Assembly: GCA_902633655.1 (NCBI GenBank)
Contig: CACPHA010000001.1
Location: 1,263-65,262, forward strand
Reading direction: 5' to 3'
Length of the DNA stretch: 64,000 bases
Origin: Paracoccaceae bacterium
Lineage (GTDB): Bacteria > Pseudomonadota > Alphaproteobacteria > Rhodobacterales > Rhodobacteraceae
Below are positions 9,385 to 64,000 of the stretch, in pieces (positions within the stretch are counted from its first letter, which is position 1; the number at the start of each line of letters is the position of its first letter). The position numbers and the translations under genes are program-made. The notes under the pieces are model-generated. The model was given only the letters and a program-made list of their open reading frames with translations. It ran no database searches and was not told the DNA's origin.

Positions 9385-9391
9385 TAATGAA

Positions 9392-22777: not shown

Positions 22778-22807
22778 TTACAAATGCAACTGTTATAAAT
22801 GCAACTA
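22778..22807 (+). repeat. Tandem 15-nt direct repeat (TTACAAATGCAACTG / TTATAAATGCAACTA) just upstream of the hmgA RBS; candidate operator
   Basis: The two contiguous units are identical at 13 of 15 positions. The first unit is part of an imperfect palindrome AGTTACAAATGCAACT. AGGAGG follows at 22813..22818. Confidence 0.4.
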
Positions 22808-22822
22808 ATACCAGGAGGTGTT

Positions 22823-24187: not shown

Positions 24188-24251
24188 TCTTTTTTGATAA
24201 TCTTACCGCCGGGGATCTCCGAAAACAGTCCGGTAAAATGAAAGGCCTCTT

Positions 24252-25508
24252 ATGACATTGCTTAAAAGCTGGGTATGCTCAGCCAATTCCTCTGATACAG
24301 ACTTTCCACTCAACAATCTGCCCTATGGTGTTTTTTCCACACAAGAAACTGAGCCACGTTGTGGCGTAGCAATTGGAAACATGATTTTTGATTGCCAGGC
24401 AGCGGAGGAAGCTGGTTTCATAAACTTTGATGAAGGCCCTATTTTTGATGTCCCCTATTGGAATGAAGTTATGGAACTCGGGCCCGATGCCTGGGCAAAG
24501 CTACGAACTAGGCTGGTGAGCCTACTCACTGAAGGGGTCGTTGAGCAAGATACATTGTCTAAAATGCTGACACCAATGTCTAGTGCAGAACTTCACCTAC
24601 CCCTCATTGTTGCCGAATACACAGATTTTTACGCCGGGAGAAATCATGCCACTAATGTTGGAACAATGTTTCGCGGAGCCGAAAATGCACTTCCGCCTAA
24701 TTGGTTACATATCCCAATCGGCTATAATGGGCGTGCCTCGTCTGTTGTAGTTTCAGGCACAGATATTAGGCGACCCTGGGGTCAATTAAAATCTGTGCAT
24801 GACAAAAAGCCCCATTTCGCGCCCTGCCAGCGCTTTGACTTTGAGCTTGAAATAGGTGCCATTGTTGGAACTTCTAGCGATGGACCTGTGAGCGTATGTG
24901 AGGCAGATGATATGATTTTTGGCTATGTAATCCTAAACGATTGGTCTGCGCGTGACATTCAGGCTTGGGAATACCAACCACTCGGTCCATTTCAGGCTAA
25001 AGCAACTGCCACCACAATCAGCCCATGGATCGTAACCAAAGCAGCACTTGAACCATTTCGATGCGATGCCCCAGAACGGGAATTTGAGCTTCTGCCTCAC
25101 CTAAAAGATAAAGGCCCGATGTTGTATAGTATTGATCTGGTTGTATCCCTAACCGCTAACGGACAACCGCCACAGAGTATAGTGAAAACAAATTACCGCG
25201 AAATGTATTATTCAAGCGCACAGCAACTAGCCCATCATAGTAGCGCTGGTTGTCCCATGAATTCCGGTGATTTGCTGGGTTCAGGTACAATTTCTGGAAA
25301 TTCACGCGGGGAATGTGGCAGTATGCTAGAACTGAGCTGGGGCGGGAAAGAGCCACTGGAAATAGATACCGGAGTAACTCGTAGTTTCCTAGAAGATGGA
25401 GATGGAATTGAAATGACAGGCTTCTCCCAAGGGAATGGTTATAAAATCGGTTTTGGGTCGTGCTTTGGCACTGTAATCAAAGCACTCAGAGATCCGTACG
25501 CAAGATGA
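24252..25508 (+). CDS. fahA: Fumarylacetoacetase
   Basis: 418 aa with FPLNNLPYGVF, IGYNGRASSVVVSG and VILNDWSARDIQAWEY motifs. Confidence 0.9.
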   Translation: MTLLKSWVCSANSSDTDFPLNNLPYGVFSTQETEPRCGVAIGNMIFDCQAAEEAGFINFDEGPIFDVPYWNEVMELGPDAWAKLRTRLVSLLTEGVVEQDTLSKMLTPMSSAELHLPLIVAEYTDFYAGRNHATNVGTMFRGAENALPPNWLHIPIGYNGRASSVVVSGTDIRRPWGQLKSVHDKKPHFAPCQRFDFELEIGAIVGTSSDGPVSVCEADDMIFGYVILNDWSARDIQAWEYQPLGPFQAKATATTISPWIVTKAALEPFRCDAPEREFELLPHLKDKGPMLYSIDLVVSLTANGQPPQSIVKTNYREMYYSSAQQLAHHSSAGCPMNSGDLLGSGTISGNSRGECGSMLELSWGGKEPLEIDTGVTRSFLEDGDGIEMTGFSQGNGYKIGFGSCFGTVIKALRDPYAR

Positions 25509-25727
25509 AAGTCTGCCATCTTCAAGTTCTACCCCATGAAGACAAAGAACTATTTTGTTGCAGTTTGTGGTTGCTTACCTTGGATTTACGTAAAAGGATA
25601 CCTGCAAACTTGTATTTAACTTGAAAAATCGGGGTTTTAAATAAGTTGGAAGAAATCAATCTTGTAAAGGATAGATTTTTACAGAAAGTTCTGATGGAAA
25701 TATGATCAATTTTTGGGGAGATATCTA

Positions 25728-26678
25728 ATGGCGAAAGCATTTGCATCGCAAGGCGATATGACGGAAAAGAAAATAAGTTTTAGCGAGATTGGAACTGGAC
25801 TTTACGCCTTTACTGCCGAGGGCGATCCAAATAGCGGAATAATCATAGGAGACGATAGTGTTATGATTATCGAAGCGCAGGCAACTCCGCGTCTTGCGAA
25901 AAAGGTAATCGATTGCGTCCGTTCAATAACCGATAAGCCTATAAGTCACTTAGTGTTGACCCACTATCATGCTGTACGTGTTCTTGGAGCCTCTGCCTTT
26001 AAAGCAAATCAGGTAATTATGTCAGATATGGCTCGTGCAATGGTTGTAGAACGCGGTCAACAGGATTGGGATAGCGAGTTTCAACGCTTTCCAAGACTTT
26101 TTGAAGGATATGAAAGCATACCCGGACTGACTTGGCCCTCAACTACATTTAAGAACAAAATGACTATCTATCTTGGCAATCGCCGGGTCGACCTTATGCA
26201 TTTGGGACGCGCTCATACAGCAGGCGACATTGTAATCAATGTGCCGGATGAAAACGTTATGTTTACGGGTGATATCGTAGAATATCGCTCCGCCTGTTAC
26301 TGTGGTGATGGACATTTTGCCGATTGGGGAGAAACCTTAGATGCCATCCGGAGTTTTAAGCCCGATGCCATTGCGCCTGGTCGGGGAGAAGCACTTATTG
26401 GCGAAGCGCTTGTAGAAGAGGCCATTGAACTTACTTATGACTTCATAGAAAGCACTTATCATCCTGCTGCCAAGGTCGCCGCTCGAAATGGAACATTGAA
26501 AGAGGCCTGGGATGCTGTTCGCACTGAATGTGATTGCAAATTTAAAGACTATGCAATTTACGAACACTGCCTACCTTTTAATGTATCGCGAGCCTATGAC
26601 GAGGCTCGCGGCATCGATTCCCCGCGAATTTGGACAGCAGAACGAGATCTTGAAATGTGGGAGGCGCTGCAGGCGTGA
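25728..26678 (+). CDS. MBL-fold protein with a non-canonical metal motif
   Basis: Beta-lactamase-fold pattern (IIIGDDSVMIIEAQ..., GRAHTAGD, FTGD). The canonical HxHxDH motif reads THYHAVR (25959..25979). Confidence 0.7.
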   Translation: MAKAFASQGDMTEKKISFSEIGTGLYAFTAEGDPNSGIIIGDDSVMIIEAQATPRLAKKVIDCVRSITDKPISHLVLTHYHAVRVLGASAFKANQVIMSDMARAMVVERGQQDWDSEFQRFPRLFEGYESIPGLTWPSTTFKNKMTIYLGNRRVDLMHLGRAHTAGDIVINVPDENVMFTGDIVEYRSACYCGDGHFADWGETLDAIRSFKPDAIAPGRGEALIGEALVEEAIELTYDFIESTYHPAAKVAARNGTLKEAWDAVRTECDCKFKDYAIYEHCLPFNVSRAYDEARGIDSPRIWTAERDLEMWEALQA

Positions 26679-28285
26679 ACAAGATTTTTGAGAGATCACT
26701 TTATCCCTATATCAGACATCCAGATCAGGATAAATCAGAGGCAACCCACCATACAATCGCCATTATTGGCGCCGGGCCAGTTGGCCTCGCAGCGGCTATT
26801 GATCTTACCCTGAGGGGCATACCCGTTGTTATTATTGATGACAATGATAAAGTCAGTTTTGGAAGTCGCGCCATCTGCTTTGCTAAGCGTACATTGGAAA
26901 TATGTGATCGTCTTGGAATAGGGGACCAACTTGTCGATAAAGGCATACAATGGAACCTAGGTAAGGTCTTTTTTAATCAGCGCAAAGTTTACGAATTCAA
27001 TTTGCTGGCTGAAGAGGGACATCAGCGCCCAGCCTTTATAAATCTCCAACAGTATTATGTAGAAGTCTACCTCTTCGAGCGACTTACTACTTTAAAAAAT
27101 AAAGGTGGTCCAGTTGACATCCGTGGAAAAACACGGGTTAACAAGATTCATCAAAATGGTAAAAAAGTACATCTAAGCCTCCAAACACCGGAAGGATCTT
27201 ATCAGATTTCAGCGGACTGGGTTATTGCCTGTGACGGTGCTAACAGCCCATCTCGCCAGATGTTGGGACAAGACTTCATAGGTCGAGTTTTTGAAGATAA
27301 TTTCCTGATTGCTGATGTCACAATGGAAGCTGACTTCCCAACAGAGCGTTGGTTTTGGTTCGATCCGCCATTCAACAAAGGCCAGTCTGCGCTCTTGCAT
27401 AAACAACCCGAAAACGTTTGGCGAGTTGATCTTCAACTGGGTCGGGATGTTGATAGGGAGGAAGAGAGGAAGCCGGAAAACGTTATTCCACGGCTTAAGG
27501 CTATGCTGGGAGAAGATATAATCTTCGAACTTGAATGGGTAAGTATCTACACCTTCCAATGCCGCCGGATGGAGCGATTTTTACACAACCGGGTTATATT
27601 TGCCGGTGACAGCGCCCATCAAGTATCACCTTTCGGCGCGCGCGGAGCCAATTCGGGAATCCAAGATGTGGACAACCTGTGTTGGAAACTGGCAGAAATT
27701 GTCAATGGTAATGCCCCAGAATTTTTTTTGGAAAGCTATAATACCGAGCGGGTGTACGCAGCAGATGAAAACATTATCAATTCAACGCGCTCAACAGATT
27801 TCATAACACCTAAATCGGATGTCAGTCGCCTGTTCCGAGATGCAGTCCTGGAGCTTTCAGCAGACCATGCATTCGCGCGACCACTCGTAAATTCAGGCCG
27901 CCTGTCCGTTCCATCATTTTACCCGGCAAGCACATATTTTTCTTATGATGTAGAAGTCCTACCTTCAATCTCCCGGCCTGGTGCAGCATGTCCAGATGCA
28001 ATTTTCGATAATGGATCATTTTTACTAAAGAACCTTGGGTTTGATTTCACGATATTGGCGATCAATGTGGAAGAATTTTTTAAAACACTTGAAACCGGCC
28101 CTTCGATAAAATTTCTAAGTATTAAAGTGACAGGTAATCAAAATAAATCGGTCAAAGATCGGTTTCTTGGAGATCAATCCAGCGCCATTTACTTGATCAG
28201 GCCCGATCAACATATCGCAGGCCGATGGTTAAAATTTGATCGCCAAGTAATCACAAAAGCTATTGATGCAGCCTTAGGCCGATAG
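26675..28285 (+). CDS. FAD-dependent aromatic-ring monooxygenase (PHBH fold with C-terminal extension; MhpA/phenol-hydroxylase-like)
   Basis: IAIIGAGPVGLAAA, ACDGANSPSR and GDSAHQVSPFGARGANSGIQD motifs. GTG 26675 gives a GTGA overlap with the MBL gene stop. Confidence 0.85.
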   Translation: MNKIFERSLYPYIRHPDQDKSEATHHTIAIIGAGPVGLAAAIDLTLRGIPVVIIDDNDKVSFGSRAICFAKRTLEICDRLGIGDQLVDKGIQWNLGKVFFNQRKVYEFNLLAEEGHQRPAFINLQQYYVEVYLFERLTTLKNKGGPVDIRGKTRVNKIHQNGKKVHLSLQTPEGSYQISADWVIACDGANSPSRQMLGQDFIGRVFEDNFLIADVTMEADFPTERWFWFDPPFNKGQSALLHKQPENVWRVDLQLGRDVDREEERKPENVIPRLKAMLGEDIIFELEWVSIYTFQCRRMERFLHNRVIFAGDSAHQVSPFGARGANSGIQDVDNLCWKLAEIVNGNAPEFFLESYNTERVYAADENIINSTRSTDFITPKSDVSRLFRDAVLELSADHAFARPLVNSGRLSVPSFYPASTYFSYDVEVLPSISRPGAACPDAIFDNGSFLLKNLGFDFTILAINVEEFFKTLETGPSIKFLSIKVTGNQNKSVKDRFLGDQSSAIYLIRPDQHIAGRWLKFDRQVITKAIDAALGR

Positions 28286-28287
28286 GT

Positions 28288-28473
28288 ATGAGCGATCTCA
28301 ATCTAACCCCAAACTTCACCAATGCAGACGACTTTTACGAATATTTACTAAATGCACACGAAGGTCTATCAAAATCTGACAGTGACGCGCTGAACGCACG
28401 TCTGATCATTTTACTCGCCAACCATATTGGGGATCTGGACGCATTGAAGCAAGCCGTTGATCTCGCAAAGTAG
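28288..28473 (+). CDS. Small conserved protein (61 aa; possibly DUF2783 / small coupling subunit of the preceding monooxygenase)
   Basis: Starts 2 nt after the monooxygenase stop and has a helical, acidic sequence. The DUF2783 assignment is from memory only. Confidence 0.5.
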   Translation: MSDLNLTPNFTNADDFYEYLLNAHEGLSKSDSDALNARLIILLANHIGDLDALKQAVDLAK

Positions 28474-28484
28474 AGGGGTTCAAA

Positions 28485-29120
28485 ATGAAAGACATCACAC
28501 TTTATGACTATTGGCGGTCCTCAGCCAGCTACCGGGTGCGAATTGCGCTTAACCTAGCAAAAATTGAGTACAAAACGGTTCCTGTAGACTTACTCAAAGG
28601 TGAACAAAGATCCGAAGTACATCTTACCCGACAACCGCAAGGGTTTGTACCAGTTCTTGAAGTCGATGGTCAGCGCTTCACACAATCGCTTGCAATAATT
28701 GAATATATAAATGAAACGTATAATCTTGGCCTCTTACCAGAGAAAATTGCTGACAGGACAAAAGTAAGGGCGCTCGCGCAAACACTCGCCATCGATGTCC
28801 ACCCCGTATGTAATCTGGCGGTAACAAATTTTGCAGTCGAGCTTTCAGGATCACAAGAAACGCGACCAATCTGGATCAAAAGTTTCATTGAACCAGGGTT
28901 GAAGGCTTTTGAAACATTACTAGGTGCATTTGAACAATCACCGTATTGCACGGGTTCTGATATTTCAGTTGCTGATGTCTGCTTGATGCCACAGATATAT
29001 AATGCCAATCGCTGGGGAACTTCAATTGATAAATATCCCAGAATAGTTTCTGTCGTGAAAGCTTGTAATGCGGATTCTGCTTTTGTCGCAGCACATCCAG
29101 ACAATGTTAAAGCCAATTAG
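28485..29120 (+). CDS. maiA: Maleylacetoacetate isomerase (GST zeta class)
   Basis: LYDYWRSSASYRVRIALNL is the zeta-class signature. The gene sits within the hmgA/fahA cluster. Confidence 0.9.
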   Translation: MKDITLYDYWRSSASYRVRIALNLAKIEYKTVPVDLLKGEQRSEVHLTRQPQGFVPVLEVDGQRFTQSLAIIEYINETYNLGLLPEKIADRTKVRALAQTLAIDVHPVCNLAVTNFAVELSGSQETRPIWIKSFIEPGLKAFETLLGAFEQSPYCTGSDISVADVCLMPQIYNANRWGTSIDKYPRIVSVVKACNADSAFVAAHPDNVKAN

Positions 29121-29132
29121 AAAGATTAAAAA

Positions 29133-29900
29133 ATGAAAGCTCCACAAAATCATTTAAAACACGCCCTTAAAGCTGGTCGTAAACAGTTTGGGTGCTGGCT
29201 GAACTTGGCCGATAGTATAGGCGCGGAAATTGTGGGCCGAGCTGGATTTGACTGGGTTCTGGTCGATGCAGAACATGGGCCCAACGGAATTCGCGATGTA
29301 ACGACTCAGTTACAAGCGTTGGAAGGTCTTAATACATCTAGCATTGTACGCGTGCCAATTGGAGAGACCTGGATCATCAAACAAGTGCTTGATGCAGGCG
29401 CTCAGTCGCTTTTGATTCCGATAGTTGAAAGCGCACAAGAAGCGCAAAAGCACGTTGATGCCGTTCGCTACCCGCCCAATGGCAATCGTGGTGTTGGCGC
29501 TTTCGTTGCTCGTGCTGCCCAATTTGGGACTCTAACAGATTACCTTACGAGCGCGGATGAGCAAATTTGCCTGATAGTTCAACTTGAAACAAAGGCCGGC
29601 CTTGAGGCTTTGGATTATATGCTTGCTATAGATGGCATCGATGGCGTTTTTGTTGGGCCATCTGATCTTGCAGCTGACATGGGCTTTCTTGGCAACCCAA
29701 AGTCTCCACAGGTGCAAAAGGCTATCGCCAATGCCCTAACGCGCATTTCTGCCTCCGGTAAAGCCGCCGGTATTTTGTCTTTGGACGATTCTGACACTAA
29801 AAAATATCTCGAACATGGTGCGCGCATGGTCGGTGTTGCTTCAGATGTACTAACCCTTAATCATACCTTAAGGGAAAAAGCCCAAAAATGGCGTAGTTAA
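29133..29900 (+). CDS. HpcH/HpaI family class II aldolase
   Basis: GCWLNLADSIGAEIVGRAGFDWVLVDAEHGPN and VRYPPNGNRGVG motifs. Confidence 0.85.
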   Translation: MKAPQNHLKHALKAGRKQFGCWLNLADSIGAEIVGRAGFDWVLVDAEHGPNGIRDVTTQLQALEGLNTSSIVRVPIGETWIIKQVLDAGAQSLLIPIVESAQEAQKHVDAVRYPPNGNRGVGAFVARAAQFGTLTDYLTSADEQICLIVQLETKAGLEALDYMLAIDGIDGVFVGPSDLAADMGFLGNPKSPQVQKAIANALTRISASGKAAGILSLDDSDTKKYLEHGARMVGVASDVLTLNHTLREKAQKWRS

Positions 29901-29957
29901 ACACAATGCTGTGGCTTGCAACCCTTCACCAAAGAAACGAATACTGCAATAGACTAA

Positions 29958-32802
<2,845 letters not shown>

Positions 32803-42921: not shown

Positions 42922-44607
42922 TCAAACACCCAAATTGGTTACGTTTGGAGCTTCAAAATCAAATGTCATTTTTGGGCCCTGAGTTGTTTTTTGATCAAGC
43001 AGGAAGCCCTTATAACCGTCTCGTACAATTGAGTTGCAGATCTTGCGGTATGTGACCAGACCTCCGGCATAAGGTGTGAAGACGCGGGGTTTTCCTGGAA
43101 TATTTGCTCCTAAATACCAACTATGCTTCACCTTCGCTAGTAAAGTCGCCTCAGCCGTAGAACGTACATGTTCTGTCCAGTTTTGGGCGGCATGTTCCTC
43201 CGCCTCAATGCGCATATAACCACCTGAAACACAGTACTTGATGCAATCGGTAATCCAATCCACATGCTGTTCAATCGATACCGGCATATTTGACAGCACA
43301 GAGGGACTACCAGGTCCAGTTATTGTGAACAGATTCGGAAACCCGGGAATGGCTAGGCCAAGATAATTCCTCGGACCTTCGGCCCAATACTCCTTTAACG
43401 ATAAGCATGACCCCTCAATATCCAACGACAGTAAAGGACCGGTCATTGCGTCAAATCCCGTTGCAAAAATTATAACATCCAGATCGCGTACATCTCCGCT
43501 TTTCAAGCTGATACCACCAGGAATAATCTCTTTGATGGGATCTGCTTTTAAATTTACGAGTGAAACATTTTCTCTATTAAAGGTTTCAAAATAATTTGTG
43601 TCTATCGGAGGCCTTTTAGCTGCATAGGGATGATCTATATCCGATAGAATTTCGGCTTTATCCGGATCCGTTACTTTCTGACGAATTTTTGATTTTATGA
43701 AGTTTGCAGCTGCTTCATTAGATTTTTCGGACGTCAGAAGATCACTAAAAACACCACGAAATCGCAAACCGCCTTTAGCCCAAGCTGCTTCGAACATATC
43801 GTTACGTTCCTCCTCAGAGACCTCCATAGCTAAATTTCCCGATATTCTAAAAGGGTGCCCATTAGGGGTGGAACGGACTAAAGCTTTTAACTCTTCATAA
43901 TGATTCCGGACCCAGTCTGCATATGTATTGTCCCAAACAGTATTACGTGCCGGGATGGAGTAATTAGCTGTTCTTTGAAAAACGGTAAGATGTTTGCAGG
44001 TCTTAGCTATTTCTGAAGCAACTTGAATCCCGGTTGACCCGGTCCCGATTTGCCCAACTCTTACCCCTGAAAAGTCAACACCTTCCTTTGGCCATTTGCC
44101 GGTATGATAGCAATCACCTTTAAATGAAGCCAATCCTGGAATTTCGGGTACATTTGCTGCAGAAAGGCAGCCTACAGCACTTATTAGCCACTTGGCATAA
44201 AAAACCCTTCCATCTTCGATCCGCACCTGCCAAATTTTATCATCGTCAAAAAAGCGGCAGGCGCTAACCTTAGTATCGAACATTATATCTTTTTTCAGGT
44301 TAAGGGAATCGGCAACATAATTTAAGTATTTTCTTATTTCAGTATGGGCTGGATATCTCTCGGTCCACTGCCATTTTTCATGAAGTTCGCGTGAAAAAAA
44401 ATAGGCATATCCTTGGCTTTCACTGTCACATCTTGCACCTGGGTATCTGTTCCAAAACCAAGTTCCCCCAACACCGCTACCTTTTTCGATCACTAAAGTG
44501 CTCAAACCAAGATCATCGCGTAATCGATGCAACTGATAGAGTCCTGAAAACCCTGCACCAATTACTAGCGCGTCAAAAAAAGTATCTGTTACATTCGTTT
44601 CCATCAT
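42922..44607 (-). CDS. Baeyer-Villiger (flavin-containing, NADPH-dependent) monooxygenase
   Basis: VIGAGFSGLY, GGTWFWNRYPGARCDSES, the BVMO fingerprint FKGDCYHTGKWP, and GTGSTG. Confidence 0.9.
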   Translation of the reverse strand: MMETNVTDTFFDALVIGAGFSGLYQLHRLRDDLGLSTLVIEKGSGVGGTWFWNRYPGARCDSESQGYAYFFSRELHEKWQWTERYPAHTEIRKYLNYVADSLNLKKDIMFDTKVSACRFFDDDKIWQVRIEDGRVFYAKWLISAVGCLSAANVPEIPGLASFKGDCYHTGKWPKEGVDFSGVRVGQIGTGSTGIQVASEIAKTCKHLTVFQRTANYSIPARNTVWDNTYADWVRNHYEELKALVRSTPNGHPFRISGNLAMEVSEEERNDMFEAAWAKGGLRFRGVFSDLLTSEKSNEAAANFIKSKIRQKVTDPDKAEILSDIDHPYAAKRPPIDTNYFETFNRENVSLVNLKADPIKEIIPGGISLKSGDVRDLDVIIFATGFDAMTGPLLSLDIEGSCLSLKEYWAEGPRNYLGLAIPGFPNLFTITGPGSPSVLSNMPVSIEQHVDWITDCIKYCVSGGYMRIEAEEHAAQNWTEHVRSTAEATLLAKVKHSWYLGANIPGKPRVFTPYAGGLVTYRKICNSIVRDGYKGFLLDQKTTQGPKMTFDFEAPNVTNLGV

Positions 44608-46195: not shown

Positions 46196-46318
46196 CTTAG
46201 CTCCTTTCAGTTTTTCCAATTCAAAGTCGATAAAACTAAGCAACATTTAACAAAGTTGACAGATGTCCCAACATGCATAACATTTTATAAATCGAATTTA
46301 AAATTTTTTAGGAATATT

Positions 46319-48424
46319 ATGTCAATTCAGCTCATAGGCTACTCTGATAAATTATCAGGTCGTGCAGGGGATACAATAAATTTTAAAGTCTCCAACAAAT
46401 TATCAAAACCCGTCACGGCTTCGCTAAAACGCTCCATATCAGCTGACCCAAACCCTAAAGGCCTAGGCATTTTAGAAACAGCGTGTGATCACTTATTTCC
46501 GGAACTTACCTTTTTAGCAGAACATCAAACTTTTCATCCAGGGTCTTTTGCCCAAACCGAAGAAAGATTAAAAACAAAAGAACTTAAAGAACTTGATATT
46601 TCAATTAGTCTCTATCCCACGATTTTACGACATAACTCTCAAACAATAGTCGCTTGGGGAGATATAGAAATAGAATTGACTTCCAGTGGGGAAATAGAAT
46701 TCTCCGTAAGTGACCGAAAAGTAATCAGCTCTCGACCACTATCTCTCAATCGTTGGTATAGGCTGAGTGCTAATCTGAGAGCCCATGATGTATTAACACT
46801 TTGCATAACTGAACTTCGAGGAGATCCAAGCGAAAAAAAATTAACAAGCAGCGTTACTGATGGGTTTCCAACGAAAGTCCCTGTAATTAATGCTCACTTT
46901 TGTTTAGCTGCATCCAGAAAAAACGGTATCGCAAGCCACCATTTCAATGGTAGACTTGAGGCACCACGCATAAGTTTTGACGGCCTAAAGACTTTTGAAT
47001 GGGATTTCTCAAAAGACATCCATCGCAAAGAAATTAAAAGTCATTTTGGACCATGTCTCAGGTTAATAAATGAACCTACTAGAGCTGTTTGTGGCAGCAC
47101 ATGGAATGGAAGCGAGTTCAATTGGAAACATAAACCTGACCATTATGCAGCAATACATTTTAATGAAGATGATATTTATGATTTTGGTTGGAAGGATAAT
47201 TTCTCCTGGAAAATTCCAAACCAAACACCTTCGGGAATTTACGTAATGCGAATTGAAAGTAACGGGCACGAAGACGCAATGCCAATATTTGTTTGTCCAC
47301 CTAAGGGTTTCAAGCAATCTAAACTTTGCCTGTTGGTATCAACTTTTACCTACGCGATTTACGGCAATCATGCACGTCCAGATTATGACTCTTCTTGGCA
47401 AAAACGTATTGAAGAATGGAAGGCATATCCACATAATCCGGCAGAAAACCCCGAATACGGGTTATCAACCTATAATACGCATCCTGATGGAAATGGCATC
47501 TGCCATGCATCACATAAAAGACCGCTTTTTAATCTCAGACCTGGTTATATCACATTTGGAGCTGCATCGTGTTCAGGTCTTCGCCATTTTCAAGCAGATA
47601 GCCATCTTGTTTCATGGCTTCACAATTATGGAATTGATTACGATGTTATTACGGATGATGAATTAGATAGAGAGGGTATAGAAGTAATCTCGGGTTACTC
47701 AGCAGTAGCAACAGGTTCTCACCCTGAATATCATACAGCTAACACCCTTGACGCCTTAACGGCTTACAGAGACTTGGGCGGAAACTTAATGTATCTAGGT
47801 GGGAATGGCTTTTACTGGCGCATAGCAAGACATCAACAGGATCCGGATCTTTTAGAAATTCGTAGAGCGGAAGATGGCTTGAGAGCCTGGGCCTCTAAAC
47901 CAGGTGAGTATTACCATGCTTTTGATGGCGCTTACGGTGGGCTTTGGAGAAGAAATGGCCGAGCGCCACAAAAGCTTGTAGGCATTGGTTTTACGGCACA
48001 GGGAGTTTTCGAGGGCATGCCTTACAAACGTGTATGCTTTGATGCCGACTTCGATTGGGTCTTTGAAGGTATCGAAGATGGACCAATTGGTGATTTTGGC
48101 TTTAGTGGCAATGGTGCAGCAGGGTTTGAGCTTGATCGTGTTGACGCCACTTTATCAAGCGATCATGAGATCACAATCTTGGCTCAGGCGTATGGAAACA
48201 GCTTTATGCTCGTTCCAGAAGAACAACTGACACATCTTACGAATTTATCAGGAGGCGATGAAGTAGACGCTAAACGATCGGACATGGTCTATTTTCGTAC
48301 CGAAACAGGTGGGCAAGTATTTTCGGTTGGATCCATTACATTTTGCGGTAGCTTACCGTGGAATCAATTTGATAATAACGTGTCTCGCCTACTCTATAAT
48401 GTGATGAAAAGGTTTATGTTGTAA
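46319..48424 (+). CDS. N,N-dimethylformamidase large (beta) subunit family protein, substrate unknown
   Basis: 701 aa from ATG 46319 (MSIQLIGYSDKLSGRAGDTINFKVS). The central and C-terminal segments (GSHPEYHT, GAAGFELDRVD, FSVGSITFCGSLPWNQFDNNVSRLL) resemble the DMFase large subunit as I recall it. Family call is from memory, not a search. Confidence 0.6.
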   Translation: MSIQLIGYSDKLSGRAGDTINFKVSNKLSKPVTASLKRSISADPNPKGLGILETACDHLFPELTFLAEHQTFHPGSFAQTEERLKTKELKELDISISLYPTILRHNSQTIVAWGDIEIELTSSGEIEFSVSDRKVISSRPLSLNRWYRLSANLRAHDVLTLCITELRGDPSEKKLTSSVTDGFPTKVPVINAHFCLAASRKNGIASHHFNGRLEAPRISFDGLKTFEWDFSKDIHRKEIKSHFGPCLRLINEPTRAVCGSTWNGSEFNWKHKPDHYAAIHFNEDDIYDFGWKDNFSWKIPNQTPSGIYVMRIESNGHEDAMPIFVCPPKGFKQSKLCLLVSTFTYAIYGNHARPDYDSSWQKRIEEWKAYPHNPAENPEYGLSTYNTHPDGNGICHASHKRPLFNLRPGYITFGAASCSGLRHFQADSHLVSWLHNYGIDYDVITDDELDREGIEVISGYSAVATGSHPEYHTANTLDALTAYRDLGGNLMYLGGNGFYWRIARHQQDPDLLEIRRAEDGLRAWASKPGEYYHAFDGAYGGLWRRNGRAPQKLVGIGFTAQGVFEGMPYKRVCFDADFDWVFEGIEDGPIGDFGFSGNGAAGFELDRVDATLSSDHEITILAQAYGNSFMLVPEEQLTHLTNLSGGDEVDAKRSDMVYFRTETGGQVFSVGSITFCGSLPWNQFDNNVSRLLYNVMKRFML

Positions 48425-57459: not shown

Positions 57460-57489
57460 ATGATCTAACTTGGTTAATAATTAGATCAT
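57460..57489 (+). promoter_or_regulatory. Perfect 9-bp inverted repeat (ATGATCTAA-N12-TTAGATCAT) upstream of the ACP/ligase/PKS operon
   Basis: Read directly from the sequence. It lies about 150 nt upstream of the ACP start and about 55 nt after the flotillin stop. Confidence 0.3.
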
Positions 57490-57636
57490 CGACCTATAGA
57501 ATATTTTGCAAACTAACGGCATTATAAACCGAAATCTTCGCATTGCGGACTAGACATTTAATTCACACATAGGCTAATCATATTGTCGGTCATAATTTGG
57601 CCGGTAAGACGAGTTAAACACCCTATAGGGAAAAGT

Positions 57637-57885
57637 ATGGACTTACGAAACATTGTTCTTGCCAGACTTGAAAAGGCAGTTGCCGAGCATTCACCGATGC
57701 CGTTTCCCCAAGATATGGAGGACGAAGATGAGTTGGACGTGTTCGGCTTAGATTCATTGGCTTTTATGGGTTTGCTAACAGGCATTGAGAAAGATGTTGG
57801 TTTTATCCCTCGCGCAATCCTGGAAGGTGACCTTTATCCAGAAACTTTCGGCGAGCTTGTTTCTGCTTACGAAAAAGCCGGATGA
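57637..57885 (+). CDS. Stand-alone acyl/aryl carrier protein
   Basis: 82 aa from ATG 57637. FGLDSLAFMGL carries the phosphopantetheine attachment Ser (57754..57756). The stop overlaps the ligase start (ATGA). Confidence 0.75.
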   Translation: MDLRNIVLARLEKAVAEHSPMPFPQDMEDEDELDVFGLDSLAFMGLLTGIEKDVGFIPRAILEGDLYPETFGELVSAYEKAG

Positions 57886-59438
57886 CGATGAAAGCCAGAG
57901 ACTTGCCGACCTATTACAACATGTGTGACATACTCGAGCACAACTTAAAGCATCGCGCAGATAAGACTGCTTTATTGAGCGAGTATGCCTCGCTGACCTT
58001 TCAAGAGGTATCAAACCAAGTGAACCAGGTCGGAAATGCTCTTATCCGAATGGGTGTCCGGTTTGGCGAGTGCGTGGCAATCCTTTGTCCAGATCGGCCA
58101 GAATGGATAACCACTTTCTTTGCAACAGCAAAGATTGGAGGGATTGCTCTTGGAATTAACACATTACTTAAGTCGGAGGAATATGACCACATCCTTAGGG
58201 ATGCGCGTGTCCGGGTGCTGGTTGTCCATGATAGTATGTTGGCTTTAGTCGAACCTATTTTAGGCCTAAACAACACCTTAACCAAGGTTATCGTTGTCGG
58301 AGTGAATGAAGACGCCAATTATAAGAACTTTTCCGACTGGATCGCTCCAGAAACCACCAATCTTGACGCCGAAAAGACGCATCGTGATGATTTTTGCTCA
58401 CTTCATTACTCTAGTGGTACAACGGGTCTACCAAAGGGGGTCTTTCACTCTCACAAAGATTATCCATTAATTGCACAGTTATCAGGCGTGGACCTCTTTG
58501 GTTTAAGTGAAAATGACCGTACATTCTCAGTCGCTAAGCTATTTTTCGTTTATGGGATTGGCGGCAACCTTATCTTTCCTTGGTATGTAGGTGCGAGCTG
58601 TGTCCTGTATGCCGGTGCGCCTCGTCAGGCAGCTGCAGTGCTCAAAACGATTGACAAATTTAAACCAACTATATTTGTTTGTGTTCCAACAGTATATGGG
58701 GCAATTCTTTCTTTGCCTAATTTCGATGAACGCTATGACGTCAGGTCGCTAAGGTTATGCATGTCTGCAGGCGAACCTCTTCCCAAGCGGCTTTGGTATG
58801 CTTGGAAAAATGCGACCGGGATTGAAATCCTTGACACGATTGGTTGCACAGAAACCTATCACACATTTATGGCTAATCGACCGGAGGAATTGCGTCCTGG
58901 CAGCAGCGGTAAGCCAATTGGGGGCTATAATGTAAGGCTTGTTGACGATAACGGTGAAGATGTCCCTCAGGGGGTGGTTGGCAATCTTATGGTGCGTGGG
59001 GAAACAACAGCACTTTTTTACCTTCATCAATCGGAAAAAACACGCCAGACCTTTCGAGGGGAATGGCTCTTAACGGGCGATCAGTATCTGAAAGATGAAA
59101 GTGGGTATTATTGGCATCAGGGACGGGCCGATGATATGCTAAAAGTCGGCGGGCTCTGGGTCTCGCCTTTGGAAATCGAAGAGGTGTTAAACGGGCATGA
59201 ATTTGTCACTGATTGTGCAGTAGTTGGGCATTATGACGATGCAGGACTTGTAAAACCAAAGGCTTTTGTTTGTCTCCGGAATGGCATTACCCCTTGTGAT
59301 CATGTGCTAGGACAACTTCTTAAATTATGTGCCAAAAAACTCGATGCTCATAGTCGCCCAAGGTGGCTTGAATTTATTGATGATCTACCGCGGACTGCAA
59401 CAGGCAAAATACAGCGTTTCAAACTGCGAGAGCATTAG
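57882..59438 (+). CDS. AMP-dependent adenylating enzyme (benzoate/4-hydroxybenzoate-CoA-ligase-like)
   Basis: YSSGTTGLPKGV (A3), GEPLP, GDQYLKDESGYYWHQGRADDMLKVGGLWVSPLEIE (A8) and PRTATGKIQRFKL (A10). Confidence 0.85.
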   Translation: MTMKARDLPTYYNMCDILEHNLKHRADKTALLSEYASLTFQEVSNQVNQVGNALIRMGVRFGECVAILCPDRPEWITTFFATAKIGGIALGINTLLKSEEYDHILRDARVRVLVVHDSMLALVEPILGLNNTLTKVIVVGVNEDANYKNFSDWIAPETTNLDAEKTHRDDFCSLHYSSGTTGLPKGVFHSHKDYPLIAQLSGVDLFGLSENDRTFSVAKLFFVYGIGGNLIFPWYVGASCVLYAGAPRQAAAVLKTIDKFKPTIFVCVPTVYGAILSLPNFDERYDVRSLRLCMSAGEPLPKRLWYAWKNATGIEILDTIGCTETYHTFMANRPEELRPGSSGKPIGGYNVRLVDDNGEDVPQGVVGNLMVRGETTALFYLHQSEKTRQTFRGEWLLTGDQYLKDESGYYWHQGRADDMLKVGGLWVSPLEIEEVLNGHEFVTDCAVVGHYDDAGLVKPKAFVCLRNGITPCDHVLGQLLKLCAKKLDAHSRPRWLEFIDDLPRTATGKIQRFKLREH

Positions 59439-59441
59439 CCA

Positions 59442-62400
59442 ATGTCAAACGAGATGTGGCTCGATGGAGGCCGACCCCAAACGCTAGAAGACGCCAATGC
59501 TGAAATATTGCGCTTGCAGGATGAGCTTGCAGCTCGCGAGATCGATGACACTTCGCGAGAACCCATCGCCATAATCGGTATGGGGTGTCGCTACCCCGGT
59601 GGTGTGCGCAATCCGAACGAATTCTGGAATCTCTTAAGCTCCGGACAGGATATCTTGAGTGATATTCCTGGGACTCGTTGGAATGTCGATGAGTACTACG
59701 ATCCTGAAATAACTGTTCCAGGAAAAGTGTATGTCAGGCAAGGTTATTTCTTGGACGATATAGACAAGTTTGACCCACAATTTTTTGGCCTGTCGCCCCG
59801 AGAAGCAGAAAGCCTTGATCCACAGCAACGCCTGGTAATGGAAGTCAGTTGGGAGACGTTGGAACATGCGGGTATCCCCCCCACCTCACTAAAAGGCGAG
59901 AAAACTGGGGTTTTCATCGGTCAATACTGGGATGATTACTCTTCACAGCGGATTTATTCCGCCGATAATCGAGAGATTGACCGCTACGCCCAACTTAGCG
60001 CTCTGCGAGGCCTTACAGCTGGCCGGATCTGTCATGTTCTAGACTCTCGCGGCCCAGCAATTCAGTTGGATACAGCCTGTTCTTCTTCATCTCTTGCCGT
60101 ACATCTCGCATGTCAGTCCTTGCGAAATGGTGAAAGCAATCTGGCCTTAGCAGGCGGCGTGAGCTTAGTACTCGCTCCTGAGCATTTGATTGGCATCTGT
60201 CAAATGACCGCTCTGTCTCCCGATGGGCGGTGCAAGACCTTTGATTCCAGCGCTAATGGCTTCGGGCAGGGTGAAGGCTGTGGTATAATCGCGTTAAAGC
60301 GCCTAAGCGATGCACAGTCTAATGGGGACACAGTTCTTGCCATAGTTCAAGGCTCTGCGGCCAATCACGATGGCCAGGCCCGCACGGTTACAACGCCAAG
60401 TGGGCCAGCCCAGCGTGCAATGCTACGAGATGCACTTGCTGATGCAGGCCTGAAAGCGGATCAGATCGATTTTGTTGAAACTCATGGCACCGGCACACCA
60501 CTTGGCGATCCTATTGAGGTAAGCGCAATCGCGCGGGTACTTTGCCAAGATCGAACCAAGCCTCTTTATTTGGGAGCGGTGAAGGCCAATGTTGGGCACC
60601 TTGATTCGGCCGCTGGGATCGCGGGACTTATGAAAGTTGTTTTGTCTCTTCAACATGAAACAATTCCACTGCATATAAATTTTTCAGAGCCTAACCGACA
60701 TATTCCATGGGACGAGTGGCCAATAAAAATTCCCATGAAAAATACAGCATGGCAGGGCAAAGAACGCTTTGCAGGGATCAGCGCATTTGGGATGAGTGGA
60801 ACTAATGTGCATTTAATTATTGGGCAGGCACCCGAACCGGTAAAACGGAGCCAGCAGCAATCTGTAGATAACTTTTCAGAACAAATATTGACGCTATCTG
60901 CCAAGGCCCCAGGAGCTTTGTCTGAATTAGCCAAACGCTTCTCCCAATTTTTGGATCACGAAGACTCCGGTAAGGAAGTTAATCTTTCTCAGCTCTGTTT
61001 TTCAGCGGCGACTAGTCGGTCCCATTTTCCACACCGTGCGGCGTTTCTGGCCAGAAACCAATTGGACCTTTCGCAAGCTGTGAATGAGTTTGCGGCTGGT
61101 AACTCCAGCGTTAGCGCAGCAAGCGGAGTTGCTGAGCGACGCTCGCCCAAATTGGCATTCCTATTCACCGGTCAGGGGGCCCAATATGTCGGAATGGGTA
61201 AGGAGCTATACGAGAGATACCCAGTTTTTCGCGCAACCATGGATCAATGCGCTAAGCTCTTGGAACCGCATCTTGACTTACCTCTACTTGAGGTCATGTG
61301 GACAGGTGAGGCCTTGCATCAAACGGCCTATACGCAATCTGCCCTTTTTGCGATTGAATATTCTCTTACTAAACTCTTCGAGGAATGGGGTATCTTACCT
61401 GATTTGCTTTTAGGTCACAGTATCGGCGAATACGCGGCCGCTTGCGTCGCCGGGGTCTTCCCGCTTGAGGAAGCGCTTCGCTTAGTAGCTGCGCGGGGGC
61501 GTTTAATGCAATCCTTGCCTCCAGGTGGAATGATGGTGAGTGTTGCCGCAGATGAAACCACGGTTCTTAGTGCTATTGCTGATGATCCTCTCGTTTCAAT
61601 TGCCGCTGTTAACGCACCACAAAGTACTGTTTTCTCAGGTGATGGATCTAGGCTGGCTGCAATTGTTGCACGTTTGGAAAGTCAGAGGGTCAAAACAACT
61701 ACGCTGAAGGTTAGCCATGCGTTCCATTCACCCATGATGGATCCGATACTTGACCAATTCCGGGAAGTTGCGGAAAGCGTGTGTTTTACGGCACCAAAAA
61801 AGACTTTGATCTCTAATGTTACAGGCAAACCGTGGGATGATACAGAAATTTCGGCGGACTACTGGGTAGACCACCTACGCGGTGCAGTCAGGTTTTCCGA
61901 TGGTATTACTTTCGCGCAATCGCAGAAGTTTCAAACTTTTTTGGAAATTGGCCCAAAGCCCACACTCCTCAGCTTGGGTCGAGCAAGCGTTTCACCTAAA
62001 TTTGGGACATGGCTTCCAAGTATTAAACCAGCCGTTGAGAGCTCGACTCTGTTAAACAGCCTTGCGCAGCTTTATGTATGCGGGGTTAATATAAATTGGA
62101 AAGGTTTTTATGATCAGTCCAATTTGCAACGTATACATCTACCAAATTATCCATGGCGCTATCAACGCTGTTGGACGGACTTTGTTTCCACCAGAGGTAA
62201 CGGGCAAAGGCTTCATCCATTGGTCCATCGGCGAATACAGAACGCCAGCAAAAGCGCTATATTCGAGTCGAACTTAAGCACCTCAAGTCCTGCCTATCTG
62301 GACGATCATAGGGTCTTTGGCAATGTCGTTTTCCCCGCCAGTGCGTTTTTTGAAATGGCGATGGTCGTTGCACGTTCAATTTTTGGGCAAGATGAAGTTG

Positions 62401-64000
62401 CGTTGACCAATGTCACGATCAGACACGCCTTGTTACTATCAGACGTTGCGACTACGGTGCAGATGATAGCCACACCAAACGGTGATCGTTTCGATTTCGA
62501 GATCTGTAGCCTATGCACCAAAGAGACCAGTGTTGAATGGCTTCAGCACACGACTGGAACACTTGAACGCAGACTACCCAGCCCGGCAGCTTCAATCGAT
62601 ATCGAAAAAGAATTAGCACACTTTATACAGCCGGTTGACACCGAAGAGCTCTCCGCTCGATTTGAGGCACGCGGTCTGGAATATTTTCCACGCTTCCGTG
62701 CAATCGAAGCTATCTTTAAGCCGGCCGGTGCATTGGATGATGATTTCGGAACTGCGTTAGCTCGCATTGAACTTCCAAAAGAAGCTGTTTTGCCTGGCGA
62801 TAGTTATCGCCTGCATCCAGTAATTACGGATGCAAGTTTCCGAATTGCAGAGGCTATTTTTCGAGATAAAGACGCCGAGCAGATCTACTTACCGTTTGGT
62901 ATATCGGGTTTCAGCTGCGACCACGCAGCTAGCGGAACGGTCTGGGTCAAAGCAACGGCACGCCAGCAAGATCGAACACGCGTTGTGGACCTGGAACTAT
63001 TTGACGAGACCGGCGAACGGGTTGCCTTCGTTGAACAACTTACTCTGCGCTCAGTTCCGATTTTTAGTCTAAAGCGCACCATTTCCAAACCACTCGCAAC
63101 AAAGGATGTCCTGAACGATTGGCTATATCAGCTGGTGTGGGAAAATAAACAATCGAAAGAAGTCACTGCTGCTGCAAACCCAGGTACATGGCTGTTGTTG
63201 GCAGACAATAGCGGCATTACATCTTCAGTCCTTGCTATAATGAAAGAGGCAGGTCAAAAAGTACAAGTTGCTAAATCGACAGACACCGCCTGCGAATTTT
63301 TAAGTTCTAAAAAAGCTCAAAACCTTAGTGGCATCCTTCACCTTTGGGCAATAAACAGCAGCGAAAAAAGCCCGAATGCCTCACTTTTGGCTAGCCTAAA
63401 AGTTGTCCAAAGGCTAAGTAAAGTTAACGGGACCGGGAAGCACTGGTTTGTTACAAAAGGCTCGCAAGCAATTGATTCCAGCGATTTGGTTTCGCCCTGG
63501 CAAAGCCAATTTTGGGGCTTTGGACGGACGCTTCAAGTCGAGCAGCCAGAAATTTTAGGCGGATGTATTGACCTAGATCCCGCTTCGAGTGACATCCAAA
63601 AAGATCTTAACTTGCTTGTGTCAGAACTTTTCAACCCTGAACGTGAAACTGAGGTAGCCTTTCGTCAAGGAATCCGTTGGGTGGCGAGGCTAACCAAAGC
63701 TGGCGTAGTCGAGGGTATGCGCGACCCTCTGACACTTGATTCTAACGCATCTTATTTAATCACGGGCGGAGTTGGCGCACTTGGATTACAGGTTGCACAA
63801 TATCTGGCATCTCAAGGCGCCTGTCACCTAGTACTAACTGGACGCAGTGGTGTTTCAACCGATGACCAACGCACATCACTTCAAGCTCTGCAGGATGCGG
63901 GTGTCAAAGTTGAAATTGTTGCTGCCGATATCAGTGATGAAAAGGATGTCAAAAAGGTACTTGCAACGGCACCACATCTCCGTGGGATCGTACATGCAGC
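59442..64000 (+). CDS. Modular type I polyketide synthase, N-terminal 1519 codons (docking-like helix, KS, AT, DH, start of KR); continues beyond window end
   Basis: Open-ended, so absent from the ORF track. Hand translation from ATG 59442 (MSNEMWLDGG...) has no stop to position 64000. The frame was spot-checked at 60060 and 61080. Confidence 0.9.
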   Translation, partial: MSNEMWLDGGRPQTLEDANAEILRLQDELAAREIDDTSREPIAIIGMGCRYPGGVRNPNEFWNLLSSGQDILSDIPGTRWNVDEYYDPEITVPGKVYVRQGYFLDDIDKFDPQFFGLSPREAESLDPQQRLVMEVSWETLEHAGIPPTSLKGEKTGVFIGQYWDDYSSQRIYSADNREIDRYAQLSALRGLTAGRICHVLDSRGPAIQLDTACSSSSLAVHLACQSLRNGESNLALAGGVSLVLAPEHLIGICQMTALSPDGRCKTFDSSANGFGQGEGCGIIALKRLSDAQSNGDTVLAIVQGSAANHDGQARTVTTPSGPAQRAMLRDALADAGLKADQIDFVETHGTGTPLGDPIEVSAIARVLCQDRTKPLYLGAVKANVGHLDSAAGIAGLMKVVLSLQHETIPLHINFSEPNRHIPWDEWPIKIPMKNTAWQGKERFAGISAFGMSGTNVHLIIGQAPEPVKRSQQQSVDNFSEQILTLSAKAPGALSELAKRFSQFLDHEDSGKEVNLSQLCFSAATSRSHFPHRAAFLARNQLDLSQAVNEFAAGNSSVSAASGVAERRSPKLAFLFTGQGAQYVGMGKELYERYPVFRATMDQCAKLLEPHLDLPLLEVMWTGEALHQTAYTQSALFAIEYSLTKLFEEWGILPDLLLGHSIGEYAAACVAGVFPLEEALRLVAARGRLMQSLPPGGMMVSVAADETTVLSAIADDPLVSIAAVNAPQSTVFSGDGSRLAAIVARLESQRVKTTTLKVSHAFHSPMMDPILDQFREVAESVCFTAPKKTLISNVTGKPWDDTEISADYWVDHLRGAVRFSDGITFAQSQKFQTFLEIGPKPTLLSLGRASVSPKFGTWLPSIKPAVESSTLLNSLAQLYVCGVNINWKGFYDQSNLQRIHLPNYPWRYQRCWTDFVSTRGNGQRLHPLVHRRIQNASKSAIFESNLSTSSPAYLDDHRVFGNVVFPASAFFEMAMVVARSIFGQDEVALTNVTIRHALLLSDVATTVQMIATPNGDRFDFEICSLCTKETSVEWLQHTTGTLERRLPSPAASIDIEKELAHFIQPVDTEELSARFEARGLEYFPRFRAIEAIFKPAGALDDDFGTALARIELPKEAVLPGDSYRLHPVITDASFRIAEAIFRDKDAEQIYLPFGISGFSCDHAASGTVWVKATARQQDRTRVVDLELFDETGERVAFVEQLTLRSVPIFSLKRTISKPLATKDVLNDWLYQLVWENKQSKEVTAAANPGTWLLLADNSGITSSVLAIMKEAGQKVQVAKSTDTACEFLSSKKAQNLSGILHLWAINSSEKSPNASLLASLKVVQRLSKVNGTGKHWFVTKGSQAIDSSDLVSPWQSQFWGFGRTLQVEQPEILGGCIDLDPASSDIQKDLNLLVSELFNPERETEVAFRQGIRWVARLTKAGVVEGMRDPLTLDSNASYLITGGVGALGLQVAQYLASQGACHLVLTGRSGVSTDDQRTSLQALQDAGVKVEIVAADISDEKDVKKVLATAPHLRGIVHA
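59559..60827 (+). other. PKS ketosynthase domain
   Basis: EPIAIIGMGCRYPG. Active-site DTACSSS (Cys codon 60078..60080), ETHGTGT, NVGHL, and GMSGTNVHLII at the end. Confidence 0.85.
61149..62081 (+). other. PKS acyltransferase domain (malonyl-type signature)
   Basis: FLFTGQGAQY, GHSIGE (Ser codon 61419..61421), and HAFH at 61716..61727. Confidence 0.8.
62208..63056 (+). other. PKS dehydratase domain
   Basis: HPLVHRR..., HRVFGNVVFP (HxxxGxxxxP, His codon 62307..62309), GLEYFPRF, HPVITDASFR and LPFGI. Confidence 0.75.
63114..64000 (+). other. PKS ketoreductase region (structural subdomain plus start of the catalytic Rossmann fold; truncated)
   Basis: WLYQLVWE marks entry into the KR region. 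YLITGGVGALGLQVAQYL lies at 63762 onward. No ER-like domain sits between DH and KR. Confidence 0.7.

Follow-up and report, generated by a model that had tools for sequence, protein, structure and literature searches.

A carrier protein, an AuaEII-like ligase and a single-module polyketide synthase at a window edge, best explained as part of a four-gene SAR116 biosynthetic cassette

In the aurachin type II polyketide synthase (PKS) of Stigmatella aurantiaca (AuaEII/AuaE/AuaB), an enzyme of the benzoate-CoA ligase family activates an aromatic acid and a discrete acyl carrier protein (ACP) primes the ketosynthase (KS) (PMC10295502). It was reported that AuaEII relies on a further enzyme, AuaE, for the loading of its ACP, that RauF and SauE carry out both steps alone, and that the aurachin pathway includes AuaG and AuaJ (PMC10295502). 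Mycobacterial p-hydroxyphenylalkanoate synthesis (FadD22/Pks15-1) also starts with the adenylation of an aryl acid, which is held on a carrier while a reducing type I PKS extends it with malonate. FadD22 is of the fatty acyl-AMP ligase (FAAL)/FadD lineage and has a fused aryl carrier protein, and Pks15/1 contains an enoylreductase (ER) domain and iterates. A stand-alone adenylating enzyme and a carrier upstream of a megasynthase that begins with a KS or a condensation domain have been described for jamaicamide (JamA/JamC) and antimycin (AntF/AntG); AntHIJKL tailors anthraniloyl-AntG on the carrier, so that on-carrier tailoring is possible. We describe here a locus at the downstream end of a 64,000-nucleotide stretch of DNA (the window; Paracoccaceae bacterium, assembly GCA_902633655.1, contig CACPHA010000001.1, positions 1,263 to 65,262 of the forward strand), which is best explained as a biosynthetic cassette of four genes from SAR116 (Puniceispirillales), self-contained and represented in the window by its first three genes. 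The cassette consists of a carrier protein, an aryl-acid ligase, a single-module PKS and a PhzS-like flavin monooxygenase, and its product is probably a small aromatic acid. Its architecture is that of a standard pathway of starter ligase, carrier, PKS module and hydroxylase, a familiar logic in an uncharacterised example. The parts that lie in the window are as follows (AT, acyltransferase; DH, dehydratase; KR, ketoreductase):

57540..57636, plus strand, putative promoter/leader region, conserved, directly upstream of the ACP gene
57637..57885, plus strand, putative stand-alone acyl/aryl carrier protein of 82 aa, with Ser40 in GLDSL (codon 57754-57756)
57888..59438, plus strand, predicted aryl-acid adenylating ligase, AuaEII-like (516 aa from ATG 57888; 518 aa from ATG 57882)
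59442..59558, plus strand, PKS N-terminal helix (aa 1-39), putative docking/dimerisation element with a conserved motif
59559..60836, plus strand, KS domain (aa 40-465), condensing type Cys213-His348-His386
61152..62096, plus strand, AT domain (aa 571-885), malonyl-specific motifs (Acyl_transf_1, 2e-62)
62199..63071, plus strand, DH domain (aa 920-1210; PKS_DH_N, 2.5e-24; PS-DH, 9e-21)
63114..64000, plus strand, KR, structural subdomain and beginning of the catalytic subdomain, truncated at the window end

The three plus-strand genes are tightly packed. As a first-pass annotation of the window had read them, the ACP open reading frame (ORF; 57637-57885), the ligase ORF (57882-59438) and the PKS (from 59442) are arranged as one operon, with the ligase stop codon (TAG, 59436-59438) 3 nt from the PKS ATG. 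The PKS frame (59442-64000, 45.6% GC) runs without a stop codon through 1519 codons up to the window end, and this open frame and the domain scores are far beyond chance. The ATGA by which the ACP stop was thought to overlap the ligase start does exist at 57882-57885, but AuaEII and all 516-aa orthologs begin at a conserved ATGAAAGC (MKA...), corresponding to window position 57888, and the upstream ATG is missing in some orthologs. The overlap is therefore probably not the true start, which by this alignment would lie at 57888, 2 nt past the ACP stop. Whichever start is used, the ACP and ligase genes are tightly coupled.

All of the PKS domains named in that annotation were recovered by motifs and by Pfam. 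The KS contains DTACSS (C213), HGTGT (H348) and NVGH (H386) and matches ketoacyl-synt (4e-89) and Ketoacyl-synt_C (1e-39); the AT contains GHSIG (S660) and HAFH (759-762), which are of the malonyl type; and the DH contains HRVFGNVVFP (HxxxGxxxxP, H956). Within the KR region the prefix domain NF047870 lies at aa 1225-1280, the NADPH site GGVGALG near residue 1442, and PF08659 (5e-21) at aa 1436-1519, covering profile positions 1-88 of 180. No ER domain was found by Pfam in the window PKS or in full-length orthologs. The N-terminal helix, for which a docking role had been proposed, carries a motif, TLE(E/D)ANAEI.RLQ.EL, that is kept in 10 of 10 orthologs, and we infer a docking function for it.

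The missing end was read from orthologs and from locus L008, which serves as a proxy, being 95.8% identical to the window in DNA over 12.7 kb and having the same upstream ABC transporter, aldehyde dehydrogenase (ALDH), short-chain dehydrogenase (SDR) and flotillin genes. In L008 the PKS is 2048 aa long; the gene for a 426-aa FAD_binding_3 protein begins 18 nt after it, and the gene beyond that is unrelated and convergent. The full-length PKS is a single KS-AT-DH-KR-ACP-TE module (TE, thioesterase), its length in orthologs being 2046-2078 aa, and no second PKS module was found in the orthologous loci, where the monooxygenase is the next gene. By these loci the remainder of the assembly line, which had been left open, would be only KR-ACP-TE, with a monooxygenase downstream. 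In the orthologs the LDD motif marks the KR as B-type, and its catalytic Tyr and Asn are present; LGVDSL is found in the ACP domain, and GHSMG with Asp and His in the TE. The closest relatives of the TE are type II thioesterases of the hydrolytic kind (RifR, 151 bits; RedJ; human TE2; SrfA-D) rather than macrocyclising TEs. Among solved structures the KS-AT portion is nearest to CurL (902 bits) and then to DEBS modules (620-715 bits), with MAS at ~580 bits and fungal iterative PKSs at 380-460 bits; by this comparison the PKS is assigned to the ordinary modular cis-AT lineage.

Fifty fetched loci were scored for the four cassette proteins, 49 of them distinct (L035 repeats L008). At all loci with a ligase identity of at least 67%, and wherever the contig reaches, the ACP gene lies directly upstream of the ligase and the PKS directly downstream, with spacings of 0-5 nt; the monooxygenase gene is present in 12 of the 12 distinct loci that extend beyond the PKS. 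Orthologous loci at 67-84% ligase identity keep the gene arrangement of L008, the GC content of the host loci ranges from 36 to 57%, and the neighbours outside the four genes fall into at least six unrelated contexts. Strict synteny of the four genes goes together with assignable genes and domains, with intact catalytic motifs and with purifying selection, the ratio of nonsynonymous to synonymous substitutions (dN/dS) being 0.05-0.25 for every cassette gene and catalytic domain at dS ~1 (KS, 0.05; stand-alone ACP, 0.07; ligase, 0.10; DH, 0.10).

A search with the ligase returned 4828 significant matches among the 8000 candidates scored, Tara Oceans being among the sources. The best 120 matches are at least 79% identical and nearly all come from metagenome collections; one relative bears the name Candidatus Puniceispirillales, an order that belongs to the Alphaproteobacteria. 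Within marine metagenomes the cassette is a conserved and very common feature of SAR116, and the earlier suggestion that such an arrangement would be unusual in an alphaproteobacterial context is not supported. In the literature searched (SAR116/Puniceispirillum PKS; benzoate-CoA ligase with ACP, type I PKS and monooxygenase) no description of the cassette was found. Five independent contigs (L001, L002, L005, L011 and L017) stop within the monooxygenase gene or at most 350 nt past it, and in L004 it is followed by a gene-less gap of ~1 kb, which suggests that the downstream edge of the cassette is a variable or hard-to-assemble region.

At the other edge, a leader of ~100 nt directly upstream of the ACP gene contains the blocks GAC(A/T)TTTAATT ... 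GG(C/T)TAATCAT ... TAAG ... ribosome-binding site. It is kept where the upstream genes are unrelated, and the cassette may thus carry its own promoter or leader. The blocks GACNTTTAATT, GGYTAATCAT and TAAG have their counterpart at ~9650-9750 in L001, L002, L004 and L005. No Rfam family was detected in the two ortholog loci scanned (L004 and L001), and a scan for consensus promoters and terminators gave nothing above chance. A perfect 9-nt inverted repeat (ATGATCTAA-N12-TTAGATCAT) at 57460-57489, in the intergenic stretch before the ACP gene, is not conserved in orthologs.

The ligase contains the Pfam domains AMP-binding and AMP-binding_C as well as the catalytic Lys509, and over residues 12-517 of 518 it scores 499.3 bits against the benzoate-CoA ligase family TIGR02262, whose curated cutoff is 375.25. 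In the PDB comparison AuaEII (4WV3) scored 711 bits, about twice as much as any other solved ligase; the benzoate-CoA ligases followed at 335-349 bits (BCL-M, 349; BadA, 336). Identity is 58.6% to AuaEII over 514 aa and 37-38% to BadA and BCL-M. Among the 41 PDB sequences at E<=1e-40 there was no FAAL, and the protein aligns end to end with AuaEII and BadA, the FAAL-type insertion being absent. Thus the enzyme is nearer to the benzoate type than to FAALs, as had been suggested, and by these comparisons the case named beforehand as refuting this, a FAAL-like ligase, does not arise; the nearest characterised enzyme, however, is AuaEII rather than BadA or HbaA.

The substrate pocket of the ligase, F222 V223 Y224 A296 G321 C322 H327 T328 in the 518-aa numbering, is identical in all 120 relatives, and the combination F-V-Y-A-G-C-H-T occurs in none of the 57 nearest 50%-cluster representatives. 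In AuaEII anthranilate is contacted by F220, T221, F222, A293, G318, C319, H324 and I325, with T221 hydrogen-bonded to the 2-amino group (PMC11253843). The narrow benzoate pocket of BadA consists of F226 A227 Y228 ... G327 S328 ... H333 I334, where H333 and I334 define the pocket volume (PMC7277991). Five of the eight AuaEII contact residues are kept and three differ (T221V, F222Y, I325T); compared with BadA, whose pocket reads F A Y A G S H I, three of the eight also differ (A to V, S to C, I to T). As the pocket matches neither enzyme, sequence does not point to one starter acid, and the ligase is best regarded as an aryl-acid ligase of the AuaEII branch with a fixed specificity of its own. 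Assignments as an anthranilate ligase (Thr221 is Val), as a plain benzoate-CoA ligase (the pocket departs from BadA at three residues, and a paralogue of the BadA type exists alongside) and as a FAAL (no PDB match at the above threshold and no insertion) were each rejected.

The BadA-type paralogue was seen in one lineage, in L041 (7118-9477) and L019 (7051-9476), where a canonical ligase (49% identity to BadA, pocket FAY/GSTEMLHI) stands in a catabolic operon immediately upstream of the cassette, so that the two ligase types coexist as distinct enzymes. A 270-aa ORF comes after it, and the ORFs before it resemble, by eye only, a thiolase, an enoyl-CoA hydratase and an ABC transporter. The nearest outgroup ligases are found in L053 (8095-15850) and L054 (1941-6028). 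One of them, P0137, joins in one protein a condensation-like domain and a ligase whose FTF pocket is of the AuaEII type; its gene is flanked by a second AMP-ligase and by PaaA/B/C/D-like oxygenase genes, an order that recalls AntF/G and AntHIJKL of antimycin. The nearest, P0136, is a ligase with a fused PP-binding carrier domain, followed by a gene that has at its start, by eye, a motif of the nonribosomal peptide synthetase heterocyclisation (Cy) type, FPLTDIQQAYWVGR.

The stand-alone ACP is the weakest of the three gene calls. Against PF00550 (PP-binding, cutoff 20.8 bits) the window protein scores 17.9 bits and the L004 ortholog 25.3 bits, and a profile of six orthologs matched solved ACPs in the PDB marginally (best E=0.026). 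The six orthologs share 58 invariant columns, including D39-S40-L41. In a low-confidence AF2 model made from the single sequence, the four helices come in the canonical order and helix II starts at Ser40, and 46 of the 49 Foldseek matches to this model were carrier proteins (ACP or peptidyl carrier protein chains), none of them individually significant. On these observations, taken with its dN/dS of 0.07, its constant place directly before the ligase gene and the carrier fusion in P0136, we accept the 82-aa ORF as a putative carrier protein.

The fourth gene, the monooxygenase, was studied in L004 and L008, where it scores 535 bits against PRK07538 (curated cutoff 400). The nearest structure is PhzS (PDB 2RGJ/3C96, 258 bits), and the next are tropone 2-monooxygenase, salicylate hydroxylase and NicC (6-hydroxynicotinate 3-monooxygenase). 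There is no phenazine gene near the cassette, and the substrate must differ from that of PhzS. For this enzyme the candidate substrates are the released product, the starter acid and the starter while bound to the ACP; the last case would account for a carrier that stands alone. That the cassette includes a group A flavin hydroxylase speaks for an electron-rich ring with a hydroxy or amino group.

How, then, does the locus compare with the systems described above? AuaEII is the closest characterised homologue of the ligase over its full length. Unlike the aurachin system, the cassette would prime a type I modular PKS with KR and DH rather than a KSalpha/KSbeta pair, it has neither an AuaE-like transferase nor a prenyltransferase, and its beta-keto group would be reduced and dehydrated. 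The cassette appears to work like FadD22/Pks15-1 without being a member of that family: the analogy drawn by the first-pass annotation holds for the functional logic but not for the ligase, which is of the benzoate-CoA ligase family, nor for the carrier, which is discrete, nor for the PKS, which has no ER and a fused TE. With the catabolic enzymes BadA and BCL-M the ligase has in common the TIGR02262 family and the pocket residues F..Y, A, G and H, but its context of ACP and PKS is biosynthetic rather than catabolic. JamA/JamC and AntF/AntG belong to other ligase families and act on other substrates, and the cassette differs from them in having one module, a fused type-II-like TE and a PhzS-like hydroxylase.

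In our best model, which we consider rather probable, an aryl starter on the ACP undergoes one malonate extension, reduction, dehydration, hydrolysis and ring hydroxylation. The AuaEII-like ligase would adenylate an aromatic carboxylic acid of small size, in all likelihood a benzoate with a hydroxy or amino substituent; the cassette has no precursor-supply genes, so the acid is presumably available from primary metabolism or from seawater. The ligase would then load the acid, directly or through a CoA thioester, onto the phosphopantetheine arm of the 82-aa carrier, and the aryl-S-ACP would prime the KS of the single cis-AT module, a step in which the conserved helix at the PKS N-terminus probably assists. 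After loading of malonate by the AT and one decarboxylative condensation, the B-type KR and the DH would turn the beta-keto group into a trans double bond, the type-II-like hydrolytic TE would free an (E)-3-arylacrylic (cinnamate-type) acid, and the PhzS-like group A flavin monooxygenase would hydroxylate the electron-rich ring, at whichever of the stages named above. The idea that an aryl acid is loaded on a discrete carrier and extended by a type I PKS was already part of the first-pass annotation, and it fits the discrete ACP, the tight coupling of the genes and the KS-first PKS with its N-terminal helix. Four parts of the model are inferred: which acid is used, whether the ACP is loaded or a CoA thioester formed, that extension happens once, and at what stage the monooxygenase comes in.

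Several findings weigh against this model. The window ACP is below the Pfam gathering cutoff, and its structural model reaches a pLDDT of 61 with no individually significant Foldseek match. The KR-ACP-TE end and the monooxygenase lie outside the window. The ligase pocket, by departing at three of eight positions from AuaEII and from BadA alike, leaves the starter acid unnamed. An AuaE-like loading enzyme is not in the cassette; since there is a single ligase, either this ligase would do both steps or the KS would take the CoA thioester. PhzS and several close relatives of the cassette monooxygenase carry out decarboxylative hydroxylation of ring carboxylates, which cannot simply be transferred to an arylacrylic acid, and single and iterative action of the module are not decidable from sequence. 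A phosphopantetheinyl transferase was not found among window ORFs of at least 150 aa, as had been said before; the companion statement that no TE or tailoring gene is visible upstream was overtaken by the TE and the monooxygenase found just past the window edge.

If the same module were to work iteratively, in the fashion of the polycyclic tetramate macrolactam synthases and of Pks15/1, it would build an aryl-polyenoic acid and so an aryl-polyene-type pigment or lipid. KS-AT-DH-KR-ACP without ER is the domain set of iterative polyene-forming type I PKSs, which the cassette PKS matches, and the cassette has only one module and a hydrolytic TE; Pks15/1, the analogue named at the outset, iterates as well. 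Because the KS-AT is closest to the non-iterative modular CurL and DEBS, and nothing in the cassette is like the lipid-attachment genes of aryl-polyene clusters, we regard this course as rather unlikely. The ligase also raises the case of an anthranilate starter, as with AuaEII and PqsA, and a quinoline- or quinolone-type alkaloid, for example by way of 2-aminocinnamoyl-ACP to a 2-quinolone that is then hydroxylated, as a marine analogue of aurachin or the Pseudomonas quinolone signal (PQS). AuaEII is its closest characterised relative, anthranilate is a primary metabolite that needs no supply genes, and group A flavoprotein hydroxylases serve quinolone pathways, PqsH and AuaG among them. Moreover, the five contact residues that are kept include C319, which is missing from BadA, and PqsA binds the amine unlike AuaEII, so that the loss of T221 is not decisive (PMC11253843). 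Nonetheless, the residue corresponding to T221 is Val in all 120 family members, with Tyr for F222 and Thr for I325, and since the outgroup P0137 keeps the FTF pocket, the change in SAR116 is derived and fixed. A B-type KR and a DH would give a trans double bond and, by chemical reasoning, no spontaneous lactamisation, and the known quinolone routes retain the beta-keto group; an anthranilate-derived alkaloid is in our judgement unlikely.

It might also be argued that the enzyme is an ordinary catabolic benzoate/aryl-CoA ligase that stands beside a PKS by chance, the small ORF being no carrier at all, as the ligase is above the TIGR02262 cutoff, the window ACP is under the Pfam threshold, and PobA and homogentisate genes occur in the window 27-35 kb upstream. 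We hold this to be very improbable, given that the 0-5 nt adjacency of ACP, ligase and PKS recurs in every locus and across the whole GC range while the surroundings change, that L041 and L019 have a separate BadA-type ligase, in a catabolic operon next to the cassette, and that no benzoyl-CoA reductase or box genes accompany the cassette; the small ORF, for its part, is under purifying selection (dN/dS 0.07), has an invariant DSL, and has orthologs above the Pfam cutoff. A FAAL-type ligase with a lipid product, in the manner of olefin synthases or of the mycobacterial Pks enzymes, is already contradicted by the data and can hardly be credited: FAAL-ACP-PKS is a common arrangement, and the PKS has weak, sub-cutoff NCBIfam similarity to Pks2 and Pks13, but the best matches of the ligase are aryl-CoA ligases, with no FAAL at the PDB threshold and no FAAL insertion, and long-chain ligase models stay under their cutoff (NF004837, 385 bits against 476).

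The remainder of the window holds an aromatic-catabolism block (22799-31136), 27 kb away from the cassette, with no linkage between the two in other genomes. Besides the four genes listed first below, the block contains a metallo-beta-lactamase-fold protein, a glutathione S-transferase and an HpcH/HpaI aldolase, and the bona fide PobA implies that the organism handles 4-hydroxybenzoate.

22799-24187, homogentisate 1,2-dioxygenase, aromatic-catabolism block
24252-25508, fumarylacetoacetase, aromatic-catabolism block
26657-28285, PRK08132-type FAD hydroxylase, aromatic-catabolism block
29961-31136, 4-hydroxybenzoate 3-monooxygenase PobA (TIGR02360, 662 bits against a cutoff of 539)
42922-44607, minus strand, Baeyer-Villiger-type flavin monooxygenase (FMO-like; PtlE model 210 bits, far under cutoff)
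46256-48424, plus strand, 722-aa protein whose C-terminal domain resembles the N,N-dimethylformamidase beta subunit (DMFA2_C, 301 bits)
13042-14562, minus strand, 506-aa ORF with no Pfam match

A link of the cassette to the PobA and homogentisate genes, or to the ABC-ALDH-SDR-flotillin block that adjoins it, was rejected; they are not syntenic elsewhere, and the adjoining block is inverted in L004. At 8728-10039 a gene for an ECF-type sigma factor is followed by a ChrR-like cupin (anti-sigma) gene, which we take to be the classic singlet-oxygen stress pair, and a cluster of DUF1365, amine-oxidase and major facilitator superfamily genes lies divergently upstream of this pair.

The interest of the cassette lies in its ecological reach and in the unexplained specificity of its ligase, the architecture itself being ordinary. 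A fixed pocket unlike those of AuaEII and BadA offers a clean case for studies of aryl-CoA ligase specificity, and the small self-contained unit, four genes with a conserved leader, makes heterologous expression practical. It is possible, although we consider it doubtful, that the F-V-Y-A-G-C-H-T pocket reflects a new aryl-acid specificity and that the cassette makes an unrecognised small aromatic metabolite found throughout SAR116. If this were true, the candidate products would be a hydroxycinnamate-like or quinolone-like infochemical or an aryl-polyene pigment, and, SAR116 being among the most abundant heterotrophs of the surface ocean, the metabolite would be a chemical-ecology signal on an ocean scale. 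SAR116 bacteria have small genomes, yet a cassette of ~10 kb with a 6-kb PKS is kept under strong purifying selection in lineages of 36-57% GC. Thus, the product probably matters to SAR116.

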